Of a stretch of DNA of 64,000 nt, positions 1 to 16,025 are shown piece by piece; the stretch's first letter is position 1; each line of letters opens with the position of its first letter. The notes under the pieces are model-generated. The model searched no databases. It had not been told where the DNA came from and worked only from the letters and a program-made list of their open reading frames with translations. The position numbers and the translations under genes are program-made. The DNA is taken from positions 21,279 to 85,278 of IMG/VR virus record IMGVR_UViG_3300021399_000134. One strand, written 5' to 3'. The stretch is from a virus (taxonomy: Duplodnaviria > Caudoviricetes).

Positions 1-3000
1 TTCTTGAACTAAATCCTTTAAATTATCAACTGTATTTGCATATTCTTCAGTATATGAGTTTACTGCTTGTGTCAATTCAGCAATCTTACTTAAAGTTTCT
101 TCTAGATTACCAACTTCATCTCCACTATCTAATATTTCTTTGTATCGAAGTAATTCCGTATAAGCATTTTGTCGCTCTGAATCAACATAATTAAGTTTGT
201 CTGCGTAAGCATCAAGTGTAGCCAAACCATCATCTGTTAAACCGAATATATCTTTATCTGTTAGAGTCTTGTGACTTAACATTGTGATGATATGTTCTGT
301 ATAGGTAACTGCATCTTCAAGATATTGTTTCATAATTTCAAATGGTCTAAGTTTAATTTCATTCAATGCCTTACGATTCTCTATGAGTTTATTTTCATCC
401 GAAAGAATGTTTTGCTCAAGTTCACTCTGTGCGGTTAACCCTTTCACATATTGTTCGGAACTAATTTCGCCAGCCTCATACTTAGCCTTTAATGCCTGAC
501 TATATGCCTCAAGCATTTTTGTGTTATTGTCAATATTAGTCTGCGTCAATTGGTTGCTTATATTATAATAATCTTCTGTCAAATATCTACCTACAGTTTC
601 AAGATACTCGCCCCTTGCCTCTAAACTCGAAATACTTGCTTTGGTAATACTTTCATACAAATCATATTCTGCTTGAAGATTTTCAAGTTCCTTAAAATGA
701 GAATCTTGTATTTTCTCCCTGTATTCTAATATATGTTGTTGCCTTGAAAGTATATCTTCATTCGCATCATCAATAGCAAGAAGATAACCATATTGCTCGG
801 TTAAATATTCTCGGCTTTGCGACTCGTAAGAATTTTTGTCGGACGCATATCCTACTTGTTCCTCCATAGCCTGAGCAATGTCATAATTAGTGCTTGCCTC
901 ATCTGCGTGACCTTGATATGCACTAATTAGAGTTTCACGAATATTCTTTTCATTTTCTTCTCGTGCAGTATCTCTTTCTAACTCTAAAGCCTCAATCTCA
1001 GCCTTAATTTCCTTGCTTAAAGAAGTGTTATATGTAGCAAGTATACCTTGTAAATTAGCAGGTAATTTCTTTAATAAACTATCAGGAATTTCCTTGCCAC
1101 TCTTGATTAAGGTTTTAACTTTGTTCTTAATCTTCTTGGCAACTTTACTTTTCCTTAACGCATTCTTAACATTGTTAGGAACTTTCTGACCACCACCTAA
1201 AGTACCTGTACTCAAAGTGTGCAAACGTTTAGCATAATAATCCTCATTTGCTGAATTGTCTTTTCGATATGTGGCAATATCGCTAGCATACAAATCATCT
1301 TGTTCAGCCAAAGTAGTCGCATTTTCTCTAGCAATAGAATTATACGAACGCATAGCCTCGTTCTCATCTAAAATATTTTGCAAAATATTATGATGAATGT
1401 CTAGGATTTCTTTATCTCTCTGTGCCCTCAATTCAGCCACTTTTGCTTGGTCTTTCTCCAACTGTGCTTGCTTAATCTGATACTTGTAAGATTGATTAAT
1501 CCATTTTATCTTTTGGCGTTCATATTTATTCTTTTCCTTTGCACTCTTAACTAATTCCTCATTAGCCTCAATAGATGCTTTTTCTTGGTCAGCCTGATCC
1601 ACATATTCTTGATACCACGCATTATATGTTTCTCGCCAACTGGTATGTGCTTCTTCAGCAGCCTTTTCAGCATTTTTAGCATTATCCCAATAACCTTGAT
1701 AAGTAGTAATTATGTTAGCAGCCTTTTCGCCATATTTTTTTATCAATTCATCTGGACTGCCTTTAATAGCACCAGTACGCAATTTTTCTAAACTAACACC
1801 AGCACCATATAAAATATTAAGTCTACCATTCTTGCGAAGATAACTCTCTGCTTTACCATAATACTTTTTAGCCGCAATCTCTTGTGATTTCCAAAGGTTT
1901 TCGTATTGCTTAATCTGAGATTTATAATTAGCATCTTTCGCACGCATATTAAATAAATTCTCTAATTTAGCCTTTGTATAATCAATTACATTCTGCAAAT
2001 GCTGAAGCCTACGAGCAATCCAATCAATTTCTTGCGATGTATCAGTTTCTGAAGAATTAGAACCTGACTTGCTACCATCATCTCCTTTATTACCTCTTTC
2101 AGTTTCAGTTTTGCTCTCAGTTTCTGTGGCTATTTTTGCAAATTTAGTTTGGATTGACTTACCTACTTCTTCGGCTTTTTGTTCTGCTTTTGCTAATTGG
2201 TCGTCTAGATTTTTTTCAGCCTCACTAGGTACACTACCTTTTCTGAACTTTAAAAACTTATAAGTTCTTAATGCTGCTAATTGAGCAGCTGTTGCTCCTG
2301 CTTTATTACCTAACTTGATAAGTGCATTAACATCATCTTCTGTATTTAAAGCAACTTTATTGAAACCACGCTTAGCAATTAGTGTTTGAGCCATAGCAAA
2401 TGTAGCGGATTTACTTGCACCAGTTAACTTTGATAATTCCTCAATATCTGAAAGAGTAGCATTTTTCAGGTCATTAGACATTAAAGCAGTCACTTTTTTC
2501 TGGAATGCTAAATCTCTAAATGCTTGTGCTGAATTTTCAGCATAACCTTGCTCTATAATAAATGCGTCTATTTCTTGTTGAGTAGCGTCTATTAACCTTT
2601 TGCCTTTTTTGGTGGCAAATTCTTTTGAGTAAGCATTATCTTTGTTCTGTCTAATTAATTTGCTTAACACAATATCATGAGCATTAGTGACACCCATTTC
2701 TTTTAACTGTGTTTCGTAATAACCTTTGCTATCTTCATCTACTTTAGCCAAGAATTCATCCGTAGAAACATAGGCAGTAGCAAGTTTATCTTGTGCTACT
2801 TTTAAGTCATCAAGCGACTTTTCACTATCGCCTGCAACATTTTTATAATTTTCCCAAGCCTTAGCGGCTTTACCAGTCCATTGGTCTACACCTAATGTTG
2901 TTCTTAATCCTTCTAGTGTGTCTGTTCCTACAGCACCATAAGTACCAGTTTTATCTTCTTTCTTTTCAGAATAAGCAGAAGTAATAGCGGTTATGCCACC

Positions 3001-6000
3001 CTTCATGGCAGATAGTGCTTGTGTGGAATCAGGTATTTGATTAATATAATCAAGGACTTCTTTGACAGAAAAGCCTAAATCTTCAAAGTGTTCTTTAACT
3101 CCATTAATATTGGATAATGTTTTATAATTTAAAGTTCCACCAATAGCCAAGTCTAATAGTGATTTTCTCTGGTCTGACGATAATAATTTCCAAGCATCAT
3201 TCATTGCAATACGCTCTGCTTTTAATTGCTTTAAAGCATATTTTTTGGCTCGTTTAGTAAACTCTGCTGTACTTTCTTCTGTATAATCAAGTCCAACTTT
3301 TGGCTGAAATTCTTGAAAGTCCTCTAATTCTTGTATTTGATTGTCTAAATCGTATTGCCTTATAAAATCGTTCGCATTGGTAGCTTTTGCACGTTCTTTC
3401 TTTAACTGTGCTAGTCGACGTTGTAACCCTGTATCTTCTTGACGTTGTAACTCTGTATCTTTTTTTAAAATAGCCTTATTGCGATAATTTAAATAATTAA
3501 CATCATCTTTAGTTAATTTTAAAATAGCTTTCTTTTCTTTGTTAGATAAACTATCCCAATCAATTTTATCGCCAAACATATCATAGATAAGTTGTTCTTG
3601 TTCATCTCTTATATAGCCTAATTCATGTAAGTAATCTAATAGTGACTCTAAATTATCAAAACCATTTTCATCAGCAAAATTAGTTAGACGTAATTTAAGG
3701 TCGCTATCTTCAGGTAGATTTAATATTTTTTCAACTGTATTACTGGATATATCTTGCTGGATATCTTCTAATGCGAGTGTTGGTTCTAATTTAAGATTAG
3801 CTTTAAACTCCCATGTTGCGATTTCTTCTTGTAAGGCAGGATATTCCATATTAAACCAATCAACTACATCTACATTTGAACTATTCAATAATTCAACTAA
3901 CTTTTTCCTAGTAGATTCAATATCGTCTTGATTTCCTGACTTTAATGCTTCATCATAGGCTTCTTTTGCTTTATCGACTTTAGCATATTGTTCTGTGCTA
4001 GTTTCATTGTTCAGTATGCGTTGATAATAAATCATGGCTTTCATTAAATCCTTGTTGGATTCATAGAAAGAATTAGCTTCTGCTAATTTATTATTAAGCT
4101 TATCTAGGAATTTATTATTAATATCATTATAGTTAGCACTAATATCTCTTATTTCTTGTAAATCTTTGATTACATCTTCAACATTGCCAGTAATAATTCC
4201 GCCATTAAATCGCTCATTTAATATTTTATCAAATTTTTCACTACCTGACGAACCTAATTTAACATCTCTAGAAATCGTGCCAAACATACTTTGATAATTG
4301 CCCCAACGATTTTGTAAATCTTCGGTTGGAACAGAATAGTTATTTAACATACCTTTAAATGTACTTACAGGGTCGTCGCCACTAAGAACGCTTAAAAGAG
4401 GATTCATAGCTCCAATCCAATTACCAACAGTTTCTCTTGCTTTAGTAAATAATGATTTTTTGTTGAATTCAGTAATAGCATCATCATATGCTTTTTTATT
4501 TAAATTATTTAAAGCATCAGTTTGTCCGTCTATTGCATCATTAATATCTTGAATAGCATCTTTTTCTGTACCATAGTTACTAATCAATTCATTTTGAAGT
4601 TCTAGCAGTCGCTCTCTTGCATTTGAAACTTCGTCCAATGAAGAAGCGGAATCATTAATTGTTTGATGTAATGAATAAATTTCTGATTTATAATTATCAA
4701 TGGTTTCATTCTCAGATTTAAATGTTTCGCCAACTTTTTTAGCAGACTCATTTAATTCATTTTGAGTATTCATTAACTTCGCATAAAATGCAATCGCCGC
4801 TCCTACAGCAATACCTGCTGTTATCCATGAATTCATCATAGTTTTAAATGCAGAAGTAACTTTAGCTTTCACAACGGTTGCTAAATTGCTGAAACTAATA
4901 GCTTGTCGATCTGTTGCACTTGTAGACAATAGAGTAGCTAATACTTGGTCTCTTTGTGCCTCTGTTAATTGAGATGTTGCTAAAGCAGCCCTTAAATCAA
5001 TTTCGGTTATTTCTCTTGTGCCATTTATTAAATTACCTTGTGCATCAATCAGATTTAATTGACCTAAAATTGAATCTCGAACATCCTCAGAAACACCACC
5101 TATATTTAATTTAGAAATAATAGTTGCACTATTAAGGGTATTTGTGTTCTGTAATGATATATTCGCGGCACTTAAAATTTGTTCAATGGCTTCATCCGTA
5201 AATTCGGAATATTTCCCTTGAACATCTTTTAGTATTTTGCGTGCTTGTTCTTCGTCATATCCAACAATAGAATTAGCCAATGTTTTGGTAAAGTCGTCGC
5301 TTTTAATATAACCATCTTTAAATAAATCAGCATAATCAGCATCACTTAACGCCTCTTTGATATTGCCTATTACAGTAGTTATTTCTGTTCCAGTAGTGGT
5401 CATTGATTTCATTTGTTTCCAAATTTCCATAAATGACTTAATGGAAGTTATTAAGCCAAATCCAACGCCACCACCTGTAACTACTTTTGAAACTCCTAAT
5501 TGACCAATTACATTAGCAAGTGCATCTGATAAAGTGATTATATTATCTAATAAAGATTTAATATCTTCTTTATCAAGAATTTGCTGTAATGCACCAACCC
5601 ATGTTTGCTGTATTTCATTAATTTTGAAATCAATAGAATCACGAACAATACCCATTTCTTTGTCAGCACTACCAGCACTTGTTTCAACTGCCTCTATGGC
5701 TGCTCGCACTTGGTCGAAATTAGAAATAATACTAGAACCTACCTGTGCTTGCGTTTTAGCAAACAATTTCTGCAACAATGCATTTTTGTTTTTCTCAGAA
5801 ATTTCATCCCACGAATTTGATAATTCTCCAAGATATTGTACTAAAGATTTGTAATGTCTTTGCGTTTCATCAGTAAATAATGAAATACCTTCTGGATTAC
5901 TTGCTGTTTTTGTTAATTCAACAACATCGCCAGTAATAGTAGATAAATTATTATCTAATTCTTCAGTGCTTTCATTATAACCCCTAACACGCATACTAAT

Positions 6001-9000
6001 ACTTCTTAATGCAGTACCAACTTTTTCACTATTCTGAATAATTTCTTGAGCACCAGTAAACAAAGCAACTGAATCTTGGAAAGATGTACCGACAGCATGA
6101 AGAGCAGCAGATGAACGCTCTAAACCTTCAACAATATCTAAGTTAGATTCTGCAAAAGTATTTCCTAGTTTATTGATTGGGTCCATGATTTCTGTTTTAA
6201 CATCATCTGGTTCGATATTAAATGCTTTCATGATACTGACCAAACCACTTTGTGCAGTTTCTGTATCCATGCCAGGTGATATAGCCGCAAATTGTGAACT
6301 CAATGCCGCCATTTCGGTTGCCGCTTCTCTAGAAGAATAACCTAATCTCGACCATGCTGATGCTTGCGAAATAATTTCAGCAGTAGTTGTACCTAAATTA
6401 GCAGCTGTCTTGGATGATTCTGCATAAAACGCATTTAATTCACTTGTATTCATTGTAGTAGTTTTTCTTAAATCTACTAATTCTGTGTCAAGATTTCTAA
6501 TAACGTCAAATGCTTCTCGTGCATACCTAGATATATCATACAAACTAAGATACATCGAAATAAAGTTAATAGACATCTGCTTGATACGATTTGATAATGA
6601 TTGGAAAATACTTTTACCAGTCTCGCCAGCCCTTACAACATTACTTTCTAATTTAAGTAATTCAGTTGATAATTCTGCAAGTTTTTCTTTGCTATCGGCT
6701 GTTTCTATTTGTATTCTTAAATTAGCAAATTGGTCTTTAAACTCTTTACTCATTGCTGAGTTTTTTGCTACAAACTTATCAAGTTTTAATAATTCACGCG
6801 TTGTATCTTCACGAGTAATTGGTGTATATATTGGTTGATTCATTGTATCAACCAATGTTTTATATTGCTTAGTAAAATCGGTGTATTGTTTAAAAATTTC
6901 TTTTATAGGTATATTTTCAGTTTTTATTTTTTTCGAATATGATTCAATTTGAGCAATAACATCATTAATATCTTTACCAAATTTTCCGTTTCTCGTGGCA
7001 TTTTTTAAATCGTTTAAAGAATTTATAATTGCTTGAAAATCAAATACCTCAACATTTTCAGTTACGTTAAAGGTTTGTAAAGCATTTTGCACCATTCTTA
7101 TGCTTTGAACGATACTGGTAAATTCACTTGAAGCATTATTGCCTAAACTCTTCAAGTATTCTTCAAAACTATCAAAGCCTGTAGTAGACTGTAGCTCTTT
7201 AGAAATTAATTCTAATTGCACTTGTAATTCTTTTAGGTTTTGGTCATAAGTCTGTAAATTCGTCGGGTCGAAAACTTTCTTTTTATTATTATCAAAAATA
7301 CTTGATTGTACTTTCAGATACTCTTTAGCATTCGATATAATCTTATTAAATGGGTCATTATCAATGTCACTCTTTAATCTTCTGAATTGTTCATCCCAAA
7401 TTGATAATTGAGTTTTGTCTTGTTCTGCACCAGCCAATTTATATACCATATCATTAAATGATGTTTGATATTTGCTATAAAAATTAGGGTCAGTCTTAGT
7501 TGCCTCAATTAAATTCTGTAACTTCTGTGAACGTGTTAAATTCTTTTCATCAATTTTAGCAGTATTGTTTTTCTCTTTTTGTACTAACTTTTCTAATTCA
7601 ATCTCTGCTTTAATGCCTTCAAAAGTTTTATCATATAAGGTTTGTTGAGTATCATCATTAACATTTGCTAATTGTGCTCGAAGTTGACCAACAACATCAT
7701 TACCAGAATTCTTTCCAAATTTAGTAGCAAGATTAGTGTCTGATTCTATCTTTTGACTTAAAATATCTAGTTGTTTTAAACCGTTATAAAATTCCGTTTG
7801 CTGAATGTCAATATTCAAGAATTTTTGTGCGTCAGCATTTAAGTCCTTAAATTGTGTTGCCCACATTCTTAGTAAGTTATTATCATTTGTATTTTGTAAT
7901 GAAGTTCTTAATTGTTCTATTCTATTTCGGAAATCATCTGTATAAGCACTATTATTTATTAATACTTGTTCAAGATTATTGAGTTCTTTTTCATACTCAT
8001 TATTTTTAGCAACACGCTCCATATTTTTATGAGTTTCGACTATTTCTTTTCTTAAACGAGAATAGTGTTCATCCCATTCTTTTTGTAGTATCTTGCTATA
8101 ACCTATATCTCCATATATATCTTTAAATTGCATCTTCGAAAGGTCATCATACAATGCTGCAATTTCATTGACATATTTTTGATAATTACTTTCATCTTTA
8201 GCAAGCATAGAAGCAAGCAATTTTAAAGAGTATTCTCTGGTTAATTGTTTTTGGTTATCAACTCTTGTGTTTTCTCCTAGACTTTCTTGGGAAAATAACC
8301 ACTCATCGTCACTATCAGGTGCAAAGATTGCATTTCTAAATTCACCCATAACTAAATAGGAAAGTTTGTTTTTATCTACTTGCCTTTGGATTTTGACAAC
8401 TTCACCTAAAATATCTTTATATTTTTCAGCTTGTGCTCGTACAAATGTTGCCTCTGCATAGAACTCGTCATTAGATGCCCGACTCAAAAATATACTTGGT
8501 CTATCTTTCTTGGTTTCGCTTTTTTGGGAATCTTTACCAAGTCCTTCTGCAACTTGTTTTTTGCTTAATTTATTAAAAATATCAGCAACAGACTTTAATT
8601 CTTCACTTCTAGCCGATAAATTATCAATAAACTTATTGAAATTATCTAAATCATCAAATTTTAAAGCTATAGATAAATTATTTATAGCTTCTGCTAAAGC
8701 CCTAACATTTTCAATACTGTCATTATCAATCGACTTGATCCAATCTAAATTAAAAGGATTTGAATTCTTATTTTGTCTTGGAATCATCTTCTTGAACAAA
8801 TCATTAATTTCAGATATATGTGGTTCAATTCGTGTTTTAAATTCCTTTAACTGTCTAGTTTTATTAGCATAGAAATTTGATATTTTTTTATTAATAGCAG
8901 TAAAGTCAATAGTGTTATAAATAGTATTGAGAATATTTTCAATTTCTGTTTTCATTTCTGTGGTAAGTTTATCATTATGTTCTATAGTCATAGAACTGAA

Positions 9001-12000
9001 AACAGTATTGATAATATTCTTAATCTCATTATTTTTAGTTTTAACAATGTTTACTTCTTCATCTAATATACCTTTTATTGCATTATTGTTCTTTTCAAAA
9101 AACTCTTTTTCAGAATCTAAAGCAGTTTTAAGTTCATTTAATGATGAAGTTAGTGTACTAAAGTTAGTTGTTATATTTTCATAAGACTGGATATTATCTA
9201 ATTCTACAAACTTTTGGTTTAACTTCTCAATATCCTGACTTACTAATATAAGATTTCCTGAAAGAGTGTCTAGTTGGTTTATTTCGCTTGTAATAACACC
9301 TTCTACAATTTGGCGTTCTTGTTCAAAGGCAGCGTTCTTTTCGTCAATGCTAAGTACAATTTCTCTAATCTTATTAACGACTTTATCTAATTTATTTGAT
9401 TCTTCTGTAGTAACTTTATCAACTACAGCCTCTTCATTTAAATAAGCCTTACTTGTATCACTTACATTTGAAGCCTCTGTTGTACTTTCTTTAAGTATTT
9501 TCTTTTCGGCTACCTTACTAAGATTTTTTCTGTTACCACTTAATAAAGAAGTCGATTTCGGAAATGCACTGATTTCTTTTAACTGTTCTTCGTAATTTTG
9601 AATATGTGCTTTTAAACTACCAATATTCAACTGATTAGAATTATCTCCAGCCATTTCTGTAGCAAGGTCTTGTTGTGCTTTCTGTAATAATCTTTCTACT
9701 TTTGGTTTTTCTTCTTTGTAATAAACAGCTAGTTTATTCATTATGTTAAAGAAATCTACAAGGCGATTAAGCCTATCTTTATCGCCTAAACCTCTAAGAA
9801 CTTTATCTCCATATAATTCATTTAATTCTTCAGAAGATATATCCATAATGCCTGCATTAGATAAATCGCCTGCAATACTAGCAAATAATTCATTATGATT
9901 GGACTTATTTAATTTCTTAGGCATTTTGGAATAAGCGTTATAATACTTTCGTAATTCATCATCTAATACCGACGATGTTTTTTCTGAAAGAGTAGTAGCA
10001 ACATTTCCTCCACCAAAAGATTTAATTTCTGATAAGCGATTTATAATTTTATCTAAAGCCACTACAACTTCATTGAAGATAGTTGCAATATTTTGAATAT
10101 TACCTTTATCATCTATTGAAACTAAAGCATCACTCACATCATATAATTCAAGACGAATATCATGCAACAAACCATCTATAGTTTTTAAACTAACTTCTTC
10201 CTCGGTATAATTAAATGCCTTTTCTTTAGTTTTTTCCCAAGTATCTGGAAAATACTTGTTCATTATATCATCTAAAGGTGTTTCAGGAATTTCATTCTTC
10301 ACGTCATCTATCGGTTCTTTAAATCCATTGAGTTTAGAAAGCATAACCTCTAAACGACCTAAAGTTTCTAAATACTCATTAGTAATATGTAATAAGTTTC
10401 TAGCAGAACTTTCATCTTGCACAAAACCCAAAGACTCAGATATATTGTTTAATGCCTTAGCAATATCATCTAACTTTGTAGTTAAATCTTCAGGTACATT
10501 CATTTTTTGAAAACTTTCAGAAGTTTGTTTTGATAGTTTTAAAATAGCAAGTAATGCATCTTTAAAATTCACAATGTAATCAGGAGACTTTGGAACAAGT
10601 TTTTTTTGCTTTTTGTTGGTATTGGCAAGGTTGTCTAATTCTTGCTTTTCTTTTTGTACTTCCTTTGTGACATCCTTTATTTCTTCTTTTTCTTGCTTTG
10701 TAGAAGATATTGCCTTGTCAAAAGCATTTTTAATTGGTTTTGATGCTTCTAAAATGCTATTTAATTCTGCATCAATTTCACCGATTGTATTACCACTGAT
10801 TTCTTCAATAACACCTTCTGTATCATATTTATCTAAATCATCTAAAGCCTTTCTTAATTTAACAAACGGTTCAATGATTTTTTGATTATCTACAGCATTC
10901 CCTTGTTGGTATAAACCTGCATAAATTGCCGAAACCTCATCATATGAGGTTTCTATATCTTGTACAATATCATCTAAAGTAGGTATTACTTCTGGTGGTT
11001 GTTCTACTTTTTTTTTCTTTTTTTGAGATTTTTCTCTTTGTCTTTTAGCAAATTTTTCTTGTGCTATTTTTTGATTTTCGCTTATTTCATCTGGTCTAAT
11101 TTTATCTCTTAAAACAACTTCCCCTCCAGCAATTTCTTTAACCAGATTTGATAAAGTTTCGTCATTTTTAATGCTTTTACCGTCAATAACAATTTCAGGT
11201 GTTACTTTTAATAGTATTGGAGATTCTTCCTCAATAGTTTTTTTGACACCACGAATAAAATCATTCGCTTCTGATTGAGCCTTTTCACCTTTAACATTGA
11301 TTGTAAAATCAATTTGTTGCTTAAAGTCTTTTTCCATTATTTCGGAAATCTTATTAATGCTCTGTCTTATTTCCCCTTCAAATTCAGGGTCCATTTTAAT
11401 TTTAGAAGATGCTAACTGTTGTTGCAAACTTTTCAGTATGTCATTATTCTTTCTTGTAGCGTAGCCTGAAACTAAAACTAATTTTACTTCTAACGGAGTG
11501 GCACTTAATCTTTGTTGAACAGAATTTACTATCTCATATACTGCATCATAAAATTCTTTTCTTGTAGTAGAAATTGATAATGGGATTTCTAATTCATTAG
11601 TACCCATTTCTGATAATAATTTTCTTTTTAATTCTTTTTGCTCTTGAGTTAGATTTTGTATGTTATAATACAGTTGAGTTTTTAATTCATCCACATTATC
11701 CAATTCAATGTTAGGTGAAATGTGTGTTAATTGTTGCACAACTTTGAGTAATTGATCGTAGGTTGACATAAACTTATCAAAGCTTAAATCAGGCATGTCA
11801 ACACTTAATTCAGAAAACTGATAATCTAGTCTAGCAAAATCTTTTAAAAATTGATTAAAGGCTTTTTCTCGTTCAACTAGAGGTTTTTTTGATAATTCTC
11901 CATGAGTTAAATTATTTATATTTCTAACCAGTGTAGCAAATTCTTTTTGTACATTTGCAGCAGCTTCTTCTGTATCGCCAACAAATCCTTGTGCCTCTTG

Positions 12001-12519
12001 TCTGCCTGCTTGCAGTAAACGATAATACCTATTTGCATCCTCCAATTGCTTTTTAATAGTTTTGTTGCTAGCAGTTTGAATCTTTACACCATTACCAGAT
12101 TTATTTATGTCACGAATAACCTTATTTACGGATGACATTTCTGTATGTAAAGCTGTAGCCTGTTTAGACATATTATTTAAAGTTTTTGAAAATACTTCTG
12201 CTTGTGCAGTAGACATATTCTTCGACATAGATTCAAAGCCTATTCGCATATCTTCAATAACTTTAGCAACATTTTTAAATCTTTGTGCAGTTTCAAAAGC
12301 AAATTCTTTAGAAATATTACCATTAAAAGTTGTGTCAAGGTCTTTCTTAATATCAGCAAGCATTTTCTTCAAGTCTTGAACTTCTTTGCTGAAGATATCA
12401 CTTAATCCAATAGTATCTGCAAAGTCCGCTTTGCGTAATTCATTGGTCATGTCTTGTACAAATTTTTTAATATCCGCCGAAAAGCCAATTTCAATAATTA
12501 CATCTTTGTTATGTGCCAT
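1..12519 (-). CDS. Giant tape measure protein (>4173 aa, truncated at the left window edge)
   Basis: ATG at 12519 with AAAGGA RBS (MAHNKDVIIEIGFSADIK). The frame is open at every spot I translated (11030, 6500, 1-30). The ORF track lists no completed minus-strand ORF here, consistent with no stop before the edge. A TP901-type TMP core lies at ~5500-6600 (RNLDTELVDLKKTT..SAWSRLGYS..SIMKAFNI..NKLGNTFA..GTALRSISMRVRG). Confidence 0.9.
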   Translation of the reverse strand, partial: MAHNKDVIIEIGFSADIKKFVQDMTNELRKADFADTIGLSDIFSKEVQDLKKMLADIKKDLDTTFNGNISKEFAFETAQRFKNVAKVIEDMRIGFESMSKNMSTAQAEVFSKTLNNMSKQATALHTEMSSVNKVIRDINKSGNGVKIQTASNKTIKKQLEDANRYYRLLQAGRQEAQGFVGDTEEAAANVQKEFATLVRNINNLTHGELSKKPLVEREKAFNQFLKDFARLDYQFSELSVDMPDLSFDKFMSTYDQLLKVVQQLTHISPNIELDNVDELKTQLYYNIQNLTQEQKELKRKLLSEMGTNELEIPLSISTTRKEFYDAVYEIVNSVQQRLSATPLEVKLVLVSGYATRKNNDILKSLQQQLASSKIKMDPEFEGEIRQSINKISEIMEKDFKQQIDFTINVKGEKAQSEANDFIRGVKKTIEEESPILLKVTPEIVIDGKSIKNDETLSNLVKEIAGGEVVLRDKIRPDEISENQKIAQEKFAKRQREKSQKKKKKVEQPPEVIPTLDDIVQDIETSYDEVSAIYAGLYQQGNAVDNQKIIEPFVKLRKALDDLDKYDTEGVIEEISGNTIGEIDAELNSILEASKPIKNAFDKAISSTKQEKEEIKDVTKEVQKEKQELDNLANTNKKQKKLVPKSPDYIVNFKDALLAILKLSKQTSESFQKMNVPEDLTTKLDDIAKALNNISESLGFVQDESSARNLLHITNEYLETLGRLEVMLSKLNGFKEPIDDVKNEIPETPLDDIMNKYFPDTWEKTKEKAFNYTEEEVSLKTIDGLLHDIRLELYDVSDALVSIDDKGNIQNIATIFNEVVVALDKIINRLSEIKSFGGGNVATTLSEKTSSVLDDELRKYYNAYSKMPKKLNKSNHNELFASIAGDLSNAGIMDISSEELNELYGDKVLRGLGDKDRLNRLVDFFNIMNKLAVYYKEEKPKVERLLQKAQQDLATEMAGDNSNQLNIGSLKAHIQNYEEQLKEISAFPKSTSLLSGNRKNLSKVAEKKILKESTTEASNVSDTSKAYLNEEAVVDKVTTEESNKLDKVVNKIREIVLSIDEKNAAFEQERQIVEGVITSEINQLDTLSGNLILVSQDIEKLNQKFVELDNIQSYENITTNFSTLTSSLNELKTALDSEKEFFEKNNNAIKGILDEEVNIVKTKNNEIKNIINTVFSSMTIEHNDKLTTEMKTEIENILNTIYNTIDFTAINKKISNFYANKTRQLKEFKTRIEPHISEINDLFKKMIPRQNKNSNPFNLDWIKSIDNDSIENVRALAEAINNLSIALKFDDLDNFNKFIDNLSARSEELKSVADIFNKLSKKQVAEGLGKDSQKSETKKDRPSIFLSRASNDEFYAEATFVRAQAEKYKDILGEVVKIQRQVDKNKLSYLVMGEFRNAIFAPDSDDEWLFSQESLGENTRVDNQKQLTREYSLKLLASMLAKDESNYQKYVNEIAALYDDLSKMQFKDIYGDIGYSKILQKEWDEHYSRLRKEIVETHKNMERVAKNNEYEKELNNLEQVLINNSAYTDDFRNRIEQLRTSLQNTNDNNLLRMWATQFKDLNADAQKFLNIDIQQTEFYNGLKQLDILSQKIESDTNLATKFGKNSGNDVVGQLRAQLANVNDDTQQTLYDKTFEGIKAEIELEKLVQKEKNNTAKIDEKNLTRSQKLQNLIEATKTDPNFYSKYQTSFNDMVYKLAGAEQDKTQLSIWDEQFRRLKSDIDNDPFNKIISNAKEYLKVQSSIFDNNKKKVFDPTNLQTYDQNLKELQVQLELISKELQSTTGFDSFEEYLKSLGNNASSEFTSIVQSIRMVQNALQTFNVTENVEVFDFQAIINSLNDLKNATRNGKFGKDINDVIAQIESYSKKIKTENIPIKEIFKQYTDFTKQYKTLVDTMNQPIYTPITREDTTRELLKLDKFVAKNSAMSKEFKDQFANLRIQIETADSKEKLAELSTELLKLESNVVRAGETGKSIFQSLSNRIKQMSINFISMYLSLYDISRYAREAFDVIRNLDTELVDLRKTTTMNTSELNAFYAESSKTAANLGTTTAEIISQASAWSRLGYSSREAATEMAALSSQFAAISPGMDTETAQSGLVSIMKAFNIEPDDVKTEIMDPINKLGNTFAESNLDIVEGLERSSAALHAVGTSFQDSVALFTGAQEIIQNSEKVGTALRSISMRVRGYNESTEELDNNLSTITGDVVELTKTASNPEGISLFTDETQRHYKSLVQYLGELSNSWDEISEKNKNALLQKLFAKTQAQVGSSIISNFDQVRAAIEAVETSAGSADKEMGIVRDSIDFKINEIQQTWVGALQQILDKEDIKSLLDNIITLSDALANVIGQLGVSKVVTGGGVGFGLITSIKSFMEIWKQMKSMTTTGTEITTVIGNIKEALSDADYADLFKDGYIKSDDFTKTLANSIVGYDEEQARKILKDVQGKYSEFTDEAIEQILSAANISLQNTNTLNSATIISKLNIGGVSEDVRDSILGQLNLIDAQGNLINGTREITEIDLRAALATSQLTEAQRDQVLATLLSTSATDRQAISFSNLATVVKAKVTSAFKTMMNSWITAGIAVGAAIAFYAKLMNTQNELNESAKKVGETFKSENETIDNYKSEIYSLHQTINDSASSLDEVSNARERLLELQNELISNYGTEKDAIQDINDAIDGQTDALNNLNKKAYDDAITEFNKKSLFTKARETVGNWIGAMNPLLSVLSGDDPVSTFKGMLNNYSVPTEDLQNRWGNYQSMFGTISRDVKLGSSGSEKFDKILNERFNGGIITGNVEDVIKDLQEIRDISANYNDINNKFLDKLNNKLAEANSFYESNKDLMKAMIYYQRILNNETSTEQYAKVDKAKEAYDEALKSGNQDDIESTRKKLVELLNSSNVDVVDWFNMEYPALQEEIATWEFKANLKLEPTLALEDIQQDISSNTVEKILNLPEDSDLKLRLTNFADENGFDNLESLLDYLHELGYIRDEQEQLIYDMFGDKIDWDSLSNKEKKAILKLTKDDVNYLNYRNKAILKKDTELQRQEDTGLQRRLAQLKKERAKATNANDFIRQYDLDNQIQELEDFQEFQPKVGLDYTEESTAEFTKRAKKYALKQLKAERIAMNDAWKLLSSDQRKSLLDLAIGGTLNYKTLSNINGVKEHFEDLGFSVKEVLDYINQIPDSTQALSAMKGGITAITSAYSEKKEDKTGTYGAVGTDTLEGLRTTLGVDQWTGKAAKAWENYKNVAGDSEKSLDDLKVAQDKLATAYVSTDEFLAKVDEDSKGYYETQLKEMGVTNAHDIVLSKLIRQNKDNAYSKEFATKKGKRLIDATQQEIDAFIIEQGYAENSAQAFRDLAFQKKVTALMSNDLKNATLSDIEELSKLTGASKSATFAMAQTLIAKRGFNKVALNTEDDVNALIKLGNKAGATAAQLAALRTYKFLKFRKGSVPSEAEKNLDDQLAKAEQKAEEVGKSIQTKFAKIATETESKTETERGNKGDDGSKSGSNSSETDTSQEIDWIARRLQHLQNVIDYTKAKLENLFNMRAKDANYKSQIKQYENLWKSQEIAAKKYYGKAESYLRKNGRLNILYGAGVSLEKLRTGAIKGSPDELIKKYGEKAANIITTYQGYWDNAKNAEKAAEEAHTSWRETYNAWYQEYVDQADQEKASIEANEELVKSAKEKNKYERQKIKWINQSYKYQIKQAQLEKDQAKVAELRAQRDKEILDIHHNILQNILDENEAMRSYNSIARENATTLAEQDDLYASDIATYRKDNSANEDYYAKRLHTLSTGTLGGGQKVPNNVKNALRKSKVAKKIKNKVKTLIKSGKEIPDSLLKKLPANLQGILATYNTSLSKEIKAEIEALELERDTAREENEKNIRETLISAYQGHADEASTNYDIAQAMEEQVGYASDKNSYESQSREYLTEQYGYLLAIDDANEDILSRQQHILEYREKIQDSHFKELENLQAEYDLYESITKASISSLEARGEYLETVGRYLTEDYYNISNQLTQTNIDNNTKMLEAYSQALKAKYEAGEISSEQYVKGLTAQSELEQNILSDENKLIENRKALNEIKLRPFEIMKQYLEDAVTYTEHIITMLSHKTLTDKDIFGLTDDGLATLDAYADKLNYVDSERQNAYTELLRYKEILDSGDEVGNLEETLSKIAELTQAVNSYTEEYANTVDNLKDLVQE

Positions 12520-13531: not shown

Positions 13532-13559
13532 AATGTATTTTTCCTTTCATTCATAATGT

Positions 13560-13922: not shown

Positions 13923-13932
13923 TTTAATCCTT

Positions 13933-14394
13933 TTAATCCTCCATTATTGACAGTCCTATCATAATAGCGTCAGCCTCATCCTCTATAGGGTTAAAGCCAT
14001 ATTTATTTCGTATGTAATCCATTGCACATTGTTTCAACGTTGCTCTATCTTTAATTCCTTCAAAACAAGCAAATGCACTTCTCCATGTGCCTGGCATTAC
14101 ACTTTGAAAATATATTTCATTCTGAATACAATAACCCCATATACCACCAATTATCATTGTTAACATTTTTAATGTTTTGACATTATTCTTTTTAAAATCA
14201 TCCTCTATAATCACATAATTAGGATGCCAAGAATCTAATTGTTTTATAATAAAGCCTATCATCATATCCATTCGCACATCTGTTCTTTTCTCTTTTTTTA
14301 AATCTATTACTAAATGTTCACATAATTTTCCGTTTTTAAAAAGAGCCATTCCTGTGCAAGTTGATGAACTGTCTATACTTACTGTTTTATACAT
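13933..14394 (-). CDS. ruvC: RuvC-like Holliday junction resolvase
   Basis: SIDSSSTCTG N-terminal motif, VIIED, and C-terminal DEADAIMIG match the RuvC acidic residues. Confidence 0.85.
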   Translation of the reverse strand: MYKTVSIDSSSTCTGMALFKNGKLCEHLVIDLKKEKRTDVRMDMMIGFIIKQLDSWHPNYVIIEDDFKKNNVKTLKMLTMIIGGIWGYCIQNEIYFQSVMPGTWRSAFACFEGIKDRATLKQCAMDYIRNKYGFNPIEDEADAIMIGLSIMED

Positions 14395-14677: not shown

Positions 14678-15016
14678 TTATTCGGATGTCTGCCCATTCT
14701 CTAAATCAACATCCACTTTTTTCTTTCTTCTTCTACCACGCTTTGGTGCGTCAGTAGTAGTCATTATATTTTTTAATACTTCTTGTACAGATTCTGTATA
14801 TTTTGAATAATCTGTTATATTGTATTTTCTTAATACTGCTTTAACTTTACTTTCTTTAAAAATGCCCATGTTATATCCAGAAATCGCATTAAATAAATCT
14901 TTGCATTCTTCCGTATCATAATCGAACATCCAAGATGGTTTTCCTTTATGTTCACTACAACTTGTGCAAAATTCATATCGAGTTCCACAACATAAACATT
15001 GTCTATTATTTGCCAT
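14678..15016 (-). CDS. Cys-rich hypothetical protein
   Basis: 112 aa; CLCCG..CTSC motifs; basic C-terminus; AAAGGA RBS. Confidence 0.75.
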   Translation of the reverse strand: MANNRQCLCCGTRYEFCTSCSEHKGKPSWMFDYDTEECKDLFNAISGYNMGIFKESKVKAVLRKYNITDYSKYTESVQEVLKNIMTTTDAPKRGRRRKKKVDVDLENGQTSE

Positions 15017-15043
15017 ATTTATATCCTTTCATTAGATAAAACA

Positions 15044-15078
15044 AGACGGATACAAGAAATAAACACTTGCACCCGCCC
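15044..15078 (-). terminator. Intrinsic terminator-like hairpin after the major tail gene
   Basis: On the minus strand, GGCGGGTGCAAG..CTTGTATCCGTC followed by TTGTTTT. Confidence 0.55.
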
Positions 15079-15182
15079 CGTTAAACAAACTATGAATTTT
15101 TATGCAAACCTAATTCTGCAAGTTCACCATACTGATATGGTGTTAAATCTCCATACTTATACCTTTTAGTCGTCGGTGTGAT

Positions 15183-16025
15183 TCACTCATCAGAATTGTT
15201 GTATTTAGCAACATCATAAAGGTTTGAATCTTCTGCAATTGCAATATAGTAAAGCAACTGCTTTTTAGCACAATAATCCTTTAATGCCTGAGCACTGAAG
15301 TTCTGTGTTGATTCAGTATCAAGAGTCCAATCGAAATCAGGAGCCATCTGGAACTTAGGGAATACAATGTATAATGCACGAGTAACCTCACTATCACAAA
15401 TATCTGAGCAAAGAACTCTTGCTGTTGCCTTGCACTGCTTAGGGAAGATGTCAGAATAGTTATCAACTCTTGCTGCTGTCTTGTCCTCTGTTACCTGATA
15501 CTCATACTTGATTTCAACAATATCTGTTGCATCAGTTGGAAGTGTAATAGTTGTAACACCAGTAGTTTCATCTGTTGCAATTGCATAAACACCTGCACCT
15601 GCTGTTGTACCCTTTGTGTAACGCTTTGCAAGGTCAGGTACTCCGTTATCATGTGTACCATAAACAATAAGTGTTCCATCAATAGGTGTATCAGGAAGGT
15701 CATAAGGTGAATCTGTTGCATTAACAAGCATAATTCTAGGAAGAACTACATTCTCTCCTGTAATAATTTCACTACCTGTCTGAAGTCCATGAAGATTCAT
15801 TGAGAATACAGCATTCTCTCCACTTACCTCTACCTGTTTTGCTGTGTAGTATCTTTTAAGAAGAGCACCATTAGCGTCTTGCTTATCTCTTGTGTCAGCA
15901 CTTTCATTCAATGATAATGAAGATAACTGGTCTAATACTGCGAGAAGTTTACCATTTGAGTCCTCAAAGAACATATCCAAAGGACGGTCAATGATAAGCT
16001 GGTCAAAATTTAATGTGTCTGCCAT
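15183..16025 (-). CDS. Major tail protein
   Basis: 280 aa acidic, beta-rich ORF (IIDRPLDMFF, VEVSGENAVF, FQMAPDFDWTLD); strong AAAGGA RBS; lies between neck genes and the TMP. Confidence 0.7.
   Translation of the reverse strand: MADTLNFDQLIIDRPLDMFFEDSNGKLLAVLDQLSSLSLNESADTRDKQDANGALLKRYYTAKQVEVSGENAVFSMNLHGLQTGSEIITGENVVLPRIMLVNATDSPYDLPDTPIDGTLIVYGTHDNGVPDLAKRYTKGTTAGAGVYAIATDETTGVTTITLPTDATDIVEIKYEYQVTEDKTAARVDNYSDIFPKQCKATARVLCSDICDSEVTRALYIVFPKFQMAPDFDWTLDTESTQNFSAQALKDYCAKKQLLYYIAIAEDSNLYDVAKYNNSDE

Follow-up and report, generated by a model that had tools for sequence, protein, structure and literature searches.

In the RNA phage Q-beta, a structural gene ends with UGA, and the occasional insertion of Trp at this codon gives A1, a C-terminally extended minor virion protein whose extension of about 200 residues is folded, conserved and essential. 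Phage SPP1 (gp17.1*) and the Listeria phages A118, A500 and PSA (Tsh-L) make long tail isoforms by frameshifting; the isoforms have a common N-terminus, and in a minority of subunits a C-terminal addition lies on the tube surface (PMC5009743). In E. coli, no stop codon leaks more than TGA, at which Trp is the residue mostly inserted; readthrough reached up to ~6% at hotspots in reporters, and TGA is followed by a back-up stop more often (PMC11126739). In the solved tail tube of phage SPR, the C-terminal residues 242–264 are disordered (PMC11850899).

The locus described here is the 3' end of a tail tube gene. It lies in an IMG/VR record of 85 kb, of which the last 64 kb were analysed (this whole stretch of DNA is called the window). 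The completeness of the record is estimated at 48%, and about half of the phage genome is absent from it. The tube gene ends with TGA, behind which the same frame continues, and the original prediction regarded this continuation as a candidate for readthrough. The closest described system is the SPR/SPbeta tube (YomU; 8ygm, 8xkn), which is alike in fold, in its PF27173 assignment and in its neighbourhood of YomW, YomO and PhageMin_Tail genes. The extension here is predicted to be disordered, like the C-terminus of the SPR tube. The two tubes differ in sequence, with ~16% identity, and in host, which is Bacillus for SPR and SPbeta and probably a rumen Lachnospiraceae here. In the literature searched, no in-frame extension behind the SPR or SPbeta tube stop is reported.

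In contrast to Q-beta A1, the extension has 30 residues, is unconserved and predicted disordered, belongs to a dsDNA siphovirus and is known from sequence alone. The long forms of SPP1 and the Listeria phages arise by a +1 or -1 frameshift and add an Ig-like domain, whereas the 30 codons here are in frame and have neither a slippery site nor an Ig-like or any other domain, so they do not belong to the frameshift-extended tail proteins. Both groups of long proteins serve as functional analogies only.

The tail tube gene and the tail module

The gene is identified as a tail tube protein gene of the YomU/SPR type (PF27173) from its family match, its predicted fold and its position in the tail module, all of which fit, and the label of major tail protein given in the original prediction agrees with this. 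The 280-aa protein matches the virion structural protein family phrog_2729 (E 1e-16), and PF27173 (YomU_Tube) is recorded, in the precomputed annotation of the identical 280-aa protein, for this protein and for nearly all of the 120 listed homologues. The AlphaFold model, which has a mean pLDDT of 80.5, finds the SPR tail tube as its top Foldseek matches (8xkn_B and 8ygm_A, E 1e-12, TM 0.57/0.71), followed by tail tube or major tail proteins of phages JBD30, Chi and YSD1.

Members of this family normally have 270–290 residues, with a core that ends in ...AEDSxxYD and is followed by a variable tail of 3–22 residues, and the 280-aa product conforms to both. In about one-tenth of the members the tube protein continues, in frame, into an additional C-terminal domain. 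This addition is either an unnamed domain of 130–145 aa, as in P0018, P0022, P0047, P0054 and similar proteins of ~410 aa, or Listeria-Bacteroides repeats (PF09479), as in P0033 and P0051, of ~357 aa. Because of these in-frame domains, the tube C-terminus is a natural site for tube decoration.

The tube gene has a YomW-like gene upstream and a YomO-like gene and a PhageMin_Tail tape measure gene downstream, and the phage is an SPbeta-like siphovirus. Relatives of the tube protein at 60% identity (loci L095 and L096) are found both in Butyrivibrio sp. INlla21, where the 272-kb contig is probably a prophage, and in a Lachnospiraceae MAG from yak rumen, which suggests that the hosts of this phage group are rumen Lachnospiraceae.

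The giant tape measure gene (window 1–12519, minus strand) is open at the window edge and encodes at least 4173 aa in the window; in an identical strain (L061, from 6507 onward) the protein has 4631 aa and contains PhageMin_Tail (PF10145). Tail length follows a rule of ~1.5 angstrom per tape measure residue, which implies a tail of ~0.6–0.7 micrometre with on the order of a thousand tube subunits. A gene for a RuvC-like Holliday junction resolvase (13933–14394, minus strand; phrog_159, E 5e-14) is placed between the tube gene and the tape measure gene, inside the tail module, where the usual occupant is a chaperone pair with a frameshift. The Cys-rich protein encoded next to the tube gene, which has the N-terminus M..RxCxxCG..Y.FC..C, is kept directly 3' of that gene in each relative that was examined, including loci L003 (from 1502 onward) and L001 (from 3885 onward), and gave no match in Pfam or PHROG.

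The open frame behind the TGA

The tube ORF ends with ...AAT TCT GAT GAG TGA, and the 30 codons that follow are translated as ITPTTKRYKYGDLTPYQYGELAELGLHKNS. The coordinates and sequence originally given for the TGA, the 30 codons and the TAG are all correct by direct reading (Table 1). The extension ends, as had also been noticed, just before a terminator hairpin, which begins 3–8 nt past the TAG and 96 nt past the TGA; a simple terminator scan missed this hairpin owing to its 9-nt loop, and it was detected by folding.

Table 1. Features around the 3' end of the tail tube gene (window coordinates)
Feature	Position	Strand	Remark
Tail tube (major tail) protein gene	15183..16025	minus	280 codons + TGA; SPbeta YomU / SPR tail tube type
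TGA stop, context GAG-TGA-A	15183..15185	minus	next in-frame stop only after 30 codons
30 in-frame sense codons (ITPTT...LHKNS)	15093..15182	minus	reachable only via readthrough; probably former C-terminal tail, now 3' UTR
Two 24-nt units encoding YKYGDLTP / YQYGELAE	15114..15161	minus	internal repeat of the extension
TAG, second in-frame stop	15090..15092	minus	where tube genes of relatives terminate
Intrinsic-terminator-like hairpin	15040..15082	minus	17-bp stem, 9-nt loop, then U-run; whole-region z-score -3.06
Next gene, 112-aa Cys-rich (CxxC...CxxC) protein	14678..15016	minus	directly downstream of the tube gene

The extension lacks a start codon of its own, as first stated, apart from a TTG four codons before its end, and it is not a separate ORF because this late TTG is its sole in-frame start-type codon. 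The UGA-A context is weak and no back-up stop follows for 30 codons. A readthrough product would have 311 aa (280, the residue at the stop position and 30 more) and would be marked by the predicted junction peptide YNNSDEWITPTTK, with Cys or Arg as the alternative at the stop position, and by a second predicted peptide, YGDLTPYQYGELAELGLHK. The extension is predicted to be disordered (pLDDT <50 in the AlphaFold model), a value that is expected for a segment without aligned homologues.

The probability of 30 open codons ranges from 0.07 with independent bases to 0.095 with a second-order Markov model, and the open frame by itself is unremarkable after ~80 genes have been scanned. At least 30 open codons are found past the stop in 18 of the 83 ORFs of the record, mostly by running into the next gene. 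The other reading frames of the extension are interrupted by stops. Its codon usage has a log-odds of 7.55, which places it at the 39th percentile among true coding windows and within the top 10% of open non-coding frames.

The 8-residue repeat that had been pointed out in the extension holds at the protein level. YKYGDLTP and YQYGELAE give a BLOSUM62 self-score of 26, a value that neither the 1500 random open sequences nor the 3000 residue shuffles attained (P < 0.001). At the DNA level the two units are identical at 16 of 24 positions (P = 0.085), the self-scores of the reverse-strand frames of the region are also raised (19–21), and the end of unit 1 and the start of unit 2 form a 7-bp hairpin, CACCATA-TCAG-TATGGTG.

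In the record, 13 of the 83 ORFs terminate with TGA, and the others of these genes reach a second in-frame stop within 0–7 codons, except one that runs into the next gene. Reassignment of TGA (genetic codes 4 or 25) is ruled out by dense coding under table 11 and by these 13 TGA-terminated ORFs. No tRNA gene, hence no suppressor tRNA, was found in the 85-kb record, which holds about half of the genome, and four related phage genomes have only Gln, Ile, Pro and Met tRNAs, none of them a suppressor. The stop region has no match in Rfam and no recognisable stimulatory element. For a SECIS element there is likewise no Rfam match, and in a general fold the only clean hairpin starts ~45 nt past the UGA.

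Relatives, strains and database searches

About twenty related loci, with tube proteins of at most 70% identity, were compared, the nearest outside the lineage having 70%. Their tube genes mostly end with TAA, often with an immediate second stop, and behind the stop the frame stays open for 0–23 unrelated codons of the spacer or extends into the gene that follows; the extension peptide is present in none of these loci. Programmed readthrough is recognised by an in-frame ORF behind a leaky stop, which is present here as TGA-A and 30 sense codons, and by the conservation of the stop and of the downstream frame in relatives, which is absent from these ~twenty loci; the original prediction had counted a lack of such conservation of the downstream frame among the findings that would speak against it. 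MAFFT aligns ITPTTKR of the extension with VNPSTGD in the tail of the nearest relative (P0002), and this stretch is too short to be evaluated as homology.

Equivalent hairpins follow the tube genes of relatives, and in 19 of 20 the terminator starts 0–36 nt past the tube stop. The next gene starts +54 to +118 nt past this stop, with ~60 being typical, and in the window these values are +166 counted from the TGA and +73 counted from the TAG. The canonical position of the tube stop is held by the TAG and not by the TGA, because the distances to the terminator and to the next gene match those of the relatives only when measured from the TAG. The extra DNA compared with the relatives is 93 nt, i.e. 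31 codons including the TGA, which is a multiple of three and is open in the tube frame.

Nine further assemblies, which come from several sequencing projects, encode a tube protein that is identical or at least 99% identical, with the same TGA and the same extension. A sequencing error at the TGA of a 311-aa gene, which had been offered as an alternative, is thus ruled out by the concordance of ten assemblies. The sole difference in the extension between strains is a CTT to CTA change in L060, synonymous in the tube frame. Over three strain pairs, with synonymous rates (pS) of 0.030, 0.006 and 0.001, the divergence of the extension is 1.1%, 0% and 0%; elsewhere it is 0.2–1.5% in coding DNA and 4–7%, with clustered differences, in other intergenic DNA. 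The extension has one synonymous and no non-synonymous change, compared with 3.3 expected at the synonymous rate (P ~0.15 from three near-identical pairs), and the strain data are too weak to separate a relic from a selected leaky stop.

Other sites of these strains show local differences. The intergenic patches 13542–13558 and 13923–13931 differ sharply between strains that are otherwise 99% identical, with ten changes within 17 nt common to L002 and L063 and a 6-nt deletion in L060, and they look like small recombination or replacement patches. In the terminator loop (15057–15062) and in the spacer before the RBS (15033–15035), two strains have different substitutions at the same positions, such as T to C or G at 15057 and C to T or A at 15035, and these two sites appear to be locally hypervariable.

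Homologues that lack the stop had been proposed as a check on the readthrough idea. A word-based search of 5.8 billion proteins with residues 272–311 of the readthrough product gave no candidate, and phmmer with the 30 residues against 1.84 billion representative proteins gave four matches and no true homologue. Three of these matches are translated tandem repeats, whose scores are raised by the sum of many weak copies; the fourth consists of 12 matched stretches. Back-translated DNA patterns found nothing beside any tube gene in viral and metagenome contigs; their matches are simple repeats and one unrelated protein family that fits the pattern by construction. This family, which is conserved and was brought up on metagenome contigs (L074–L090) by the pattern Y.YG[DE][LF], has the motif ...FDEYAYGDFADYYYGELAPSTGYLQVWD.... 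The 93 nt have no second copy in the rest of the genome and are not IS-like, and tblastn against the phages collection gave no match. In isolate genomes, the single-protein scan found nothing and the alignment scan found only the 60%-identical relatives. The best pairwise local alignment of the extension is to the extreme C-terminus of the ~410-aa long-form tails (ITATTQKFK...DLSELVL), with a score of 35, 12 of 26 residues identical and a shuffle P of ~0.03. With profile HMMs of the long-form domain, either of its full length or of its last 38 residues, the extension scores 0.2 bits and ranks 152nd of ~3000 six-frame segments.

Origin of the extension

The leading explanation, which is tentative and falls somewhat short of being probable, is that the tube protein once had a longer C-terminal tail, peculiar to this lineage, which an in-frame TGA has cut off and which is now translated only by background misreading of UGA. 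The 30 codons were probably once coding, in a tube frame of 311 codons of which the TGA is an internal stop, since the TAG is at the canonical position, the 93-nt frame is open, the codons are coding-like and the repeat is seen at the protein level. The tube frame of the lineage would formerly have run through 311 codons to the TAG just before the terminator, and the in-frame TGA would interrupt it at codon 281. Release factor 2 would terminate at this TGA to give the 280-aa tube protein as the main product, so the 30 downstream codons would at present be 3' untranslated RNA. The tRNA-Trp would misread UGA-A as ordinary background leakiness, probably at a few per cent or less, and the resulting 311-aa form would have a floppy, surface-exposed and apparently dispensable tail. 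Some 311-aa protein is likely to be made whether it is useful or not, because UGA leaks at background level in E. coli; the stop codon is the same as in these E. coli data, but the host here is presumed to be a Lachnospiraceae, in which the rates may differ.

The truncated tail accords with the C-terminal tails of the family, which are short, variable and evidently dispensable, with the normal family length of the 280-aa product, with a repeat that is stronger in protein than in DNA, with the absence of the peptide from relatives and from 1.8 billion representative proteins and with TGA being the leakiest stop, mostly read as Trp in E. coli (PMC11126739). A 31-residue addition at the tube C-terminus should be harmless, because the SPR C-terminus is disordered and the family tolerates whole domains there, which would remove the pressure to close the frame. 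Against the truncated tail, the longer ancestral form is a reconstruction, no relative without the stop having been found, and the open frame by itself is within chance for ~80 genes. A relic should also decay, yet the lone strain substitution is synonymous, a direction that fits selection and is not significant. The weak UGA-A is slightly odd as well, as relatives of this highly expressed gene favour TAA and back-up stops.

The 93 nt may instead never have been coding, being a lineage-specific 3' UTR that arose by insertion or local duplication and is open by chance, with any role exerted at the RNA level, e.g. by small hairpins that affect mRNA stability. With P = 0.07–0.095 for 30 open codons, one case is expected among the few genes with long spacers, and long open frames past the stop are seen in 18 of 83 ORFs; a perfect 7-bp hairpin lies across the repeat, as does another small one, and the reverse-strand self-scores of 19–21 indicate that its signal is partly at the DNA level. 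This origin, which also agrees with the lack of any homologue for both peptide and DNA, is possible, if on the unlikely side: chance does not readily account for a segment that is a multiple of three and stops at the canonical position, for codon usage in the top 10% of open non-coding frames or for a repeat far more significant as protein than as DNA, and the DNA is neither repeated elsewhere in the genome nor IS-like and matches no Rfam family. It is highly improbable that the segment is left over, still in frame, from another coding sequence, for instance from the final strands of the 130–145-aa decoration domain of the long forms after an internal deletion, as the pairwise alignment to their extreme C-terminus (12 of 26 identical, shuffle P ~0.03) is weakly refuted by the profile HMMs (0.2 bits, rank 152 of ~3000) and is not counted as homology.

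The stop position, the coding-like codons and the protein-level repeat would also fit a selected leaky readthrough, in which UGA-A is kept so that a fixed minority of subunits bears a flexible tail of 31 residues (Trp + 30) that might bind the host surface or another virion protein; this second tube isoform would resemble in function the long forms that other siphoviruses make by frameshifting. The stop is of the leakiest type and has no back-up for 30 codons, unlike those of the other TGA genes of the phage and of most relatives, the sole strain substitution is synonymous, with a density of 1.1% that is like coding DNA as compared with 4–7% in intergenic DNA, and the family accepts C-terminal additions (the ~410-aa forms and the PF09479 repeats). 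Such selection is nevertheless unlikely, given that the extension is conserved in no relative, that its peptide has no homologue in protein or metagenome searches, that the selection test is not significant (P ~0.15) and that the tail is predicted disordered (pLDDT <50). Neither the 85-kb record nor the four related phage genomes contain a suppressor tRNA, the search for stimulatory elements gave no Rfam match and nothing recognisable, and no tailed-phage tail protein made by stop-codon readthrough appears in the literature searched. The original proposal of readthrough is partly supported, by the identity of the gene, by the real TGA in its weak UGA-A context and by the TAG at the canonical stop. 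Conservation in relatives, a homologue of the peptide, a suppressor tRNA and a stimulatory element were not found; the role that the proposal gave to the extension, as a docking site for a tail-decorating protein, has gained no support.

On present evidence the case is an ordinary one, in which a variable and dispensable tail is cut by an in-frame stop and background leakiness accounts for any longer product. Recoding should be read from an open frame behind a stop only when relatives conserve that frame; here no conservation is seen outside one near-clonal lineage, whose ten near-identical assemblies are uninformative on this point. It is decidedly unlikely that the siphovirus exploits UGA readthrough on purpose, inserting Trp at codon 281 so that a small fraction of its ~thousand tube subunits bears a 31-residue tail with a Tyr/Gly repeat, in parallel to the long isoforms that SPP1 and the Listeria phages obtain by frameshifting. 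If the readthrough were purposeful, this phage would be, within the literature searched, the first tailed phage with a tail tube isoform that arises by stop-codon readthrough and not by frameshifting, and it would offer an easy handle on tube decoration in a very long-tailed phage.
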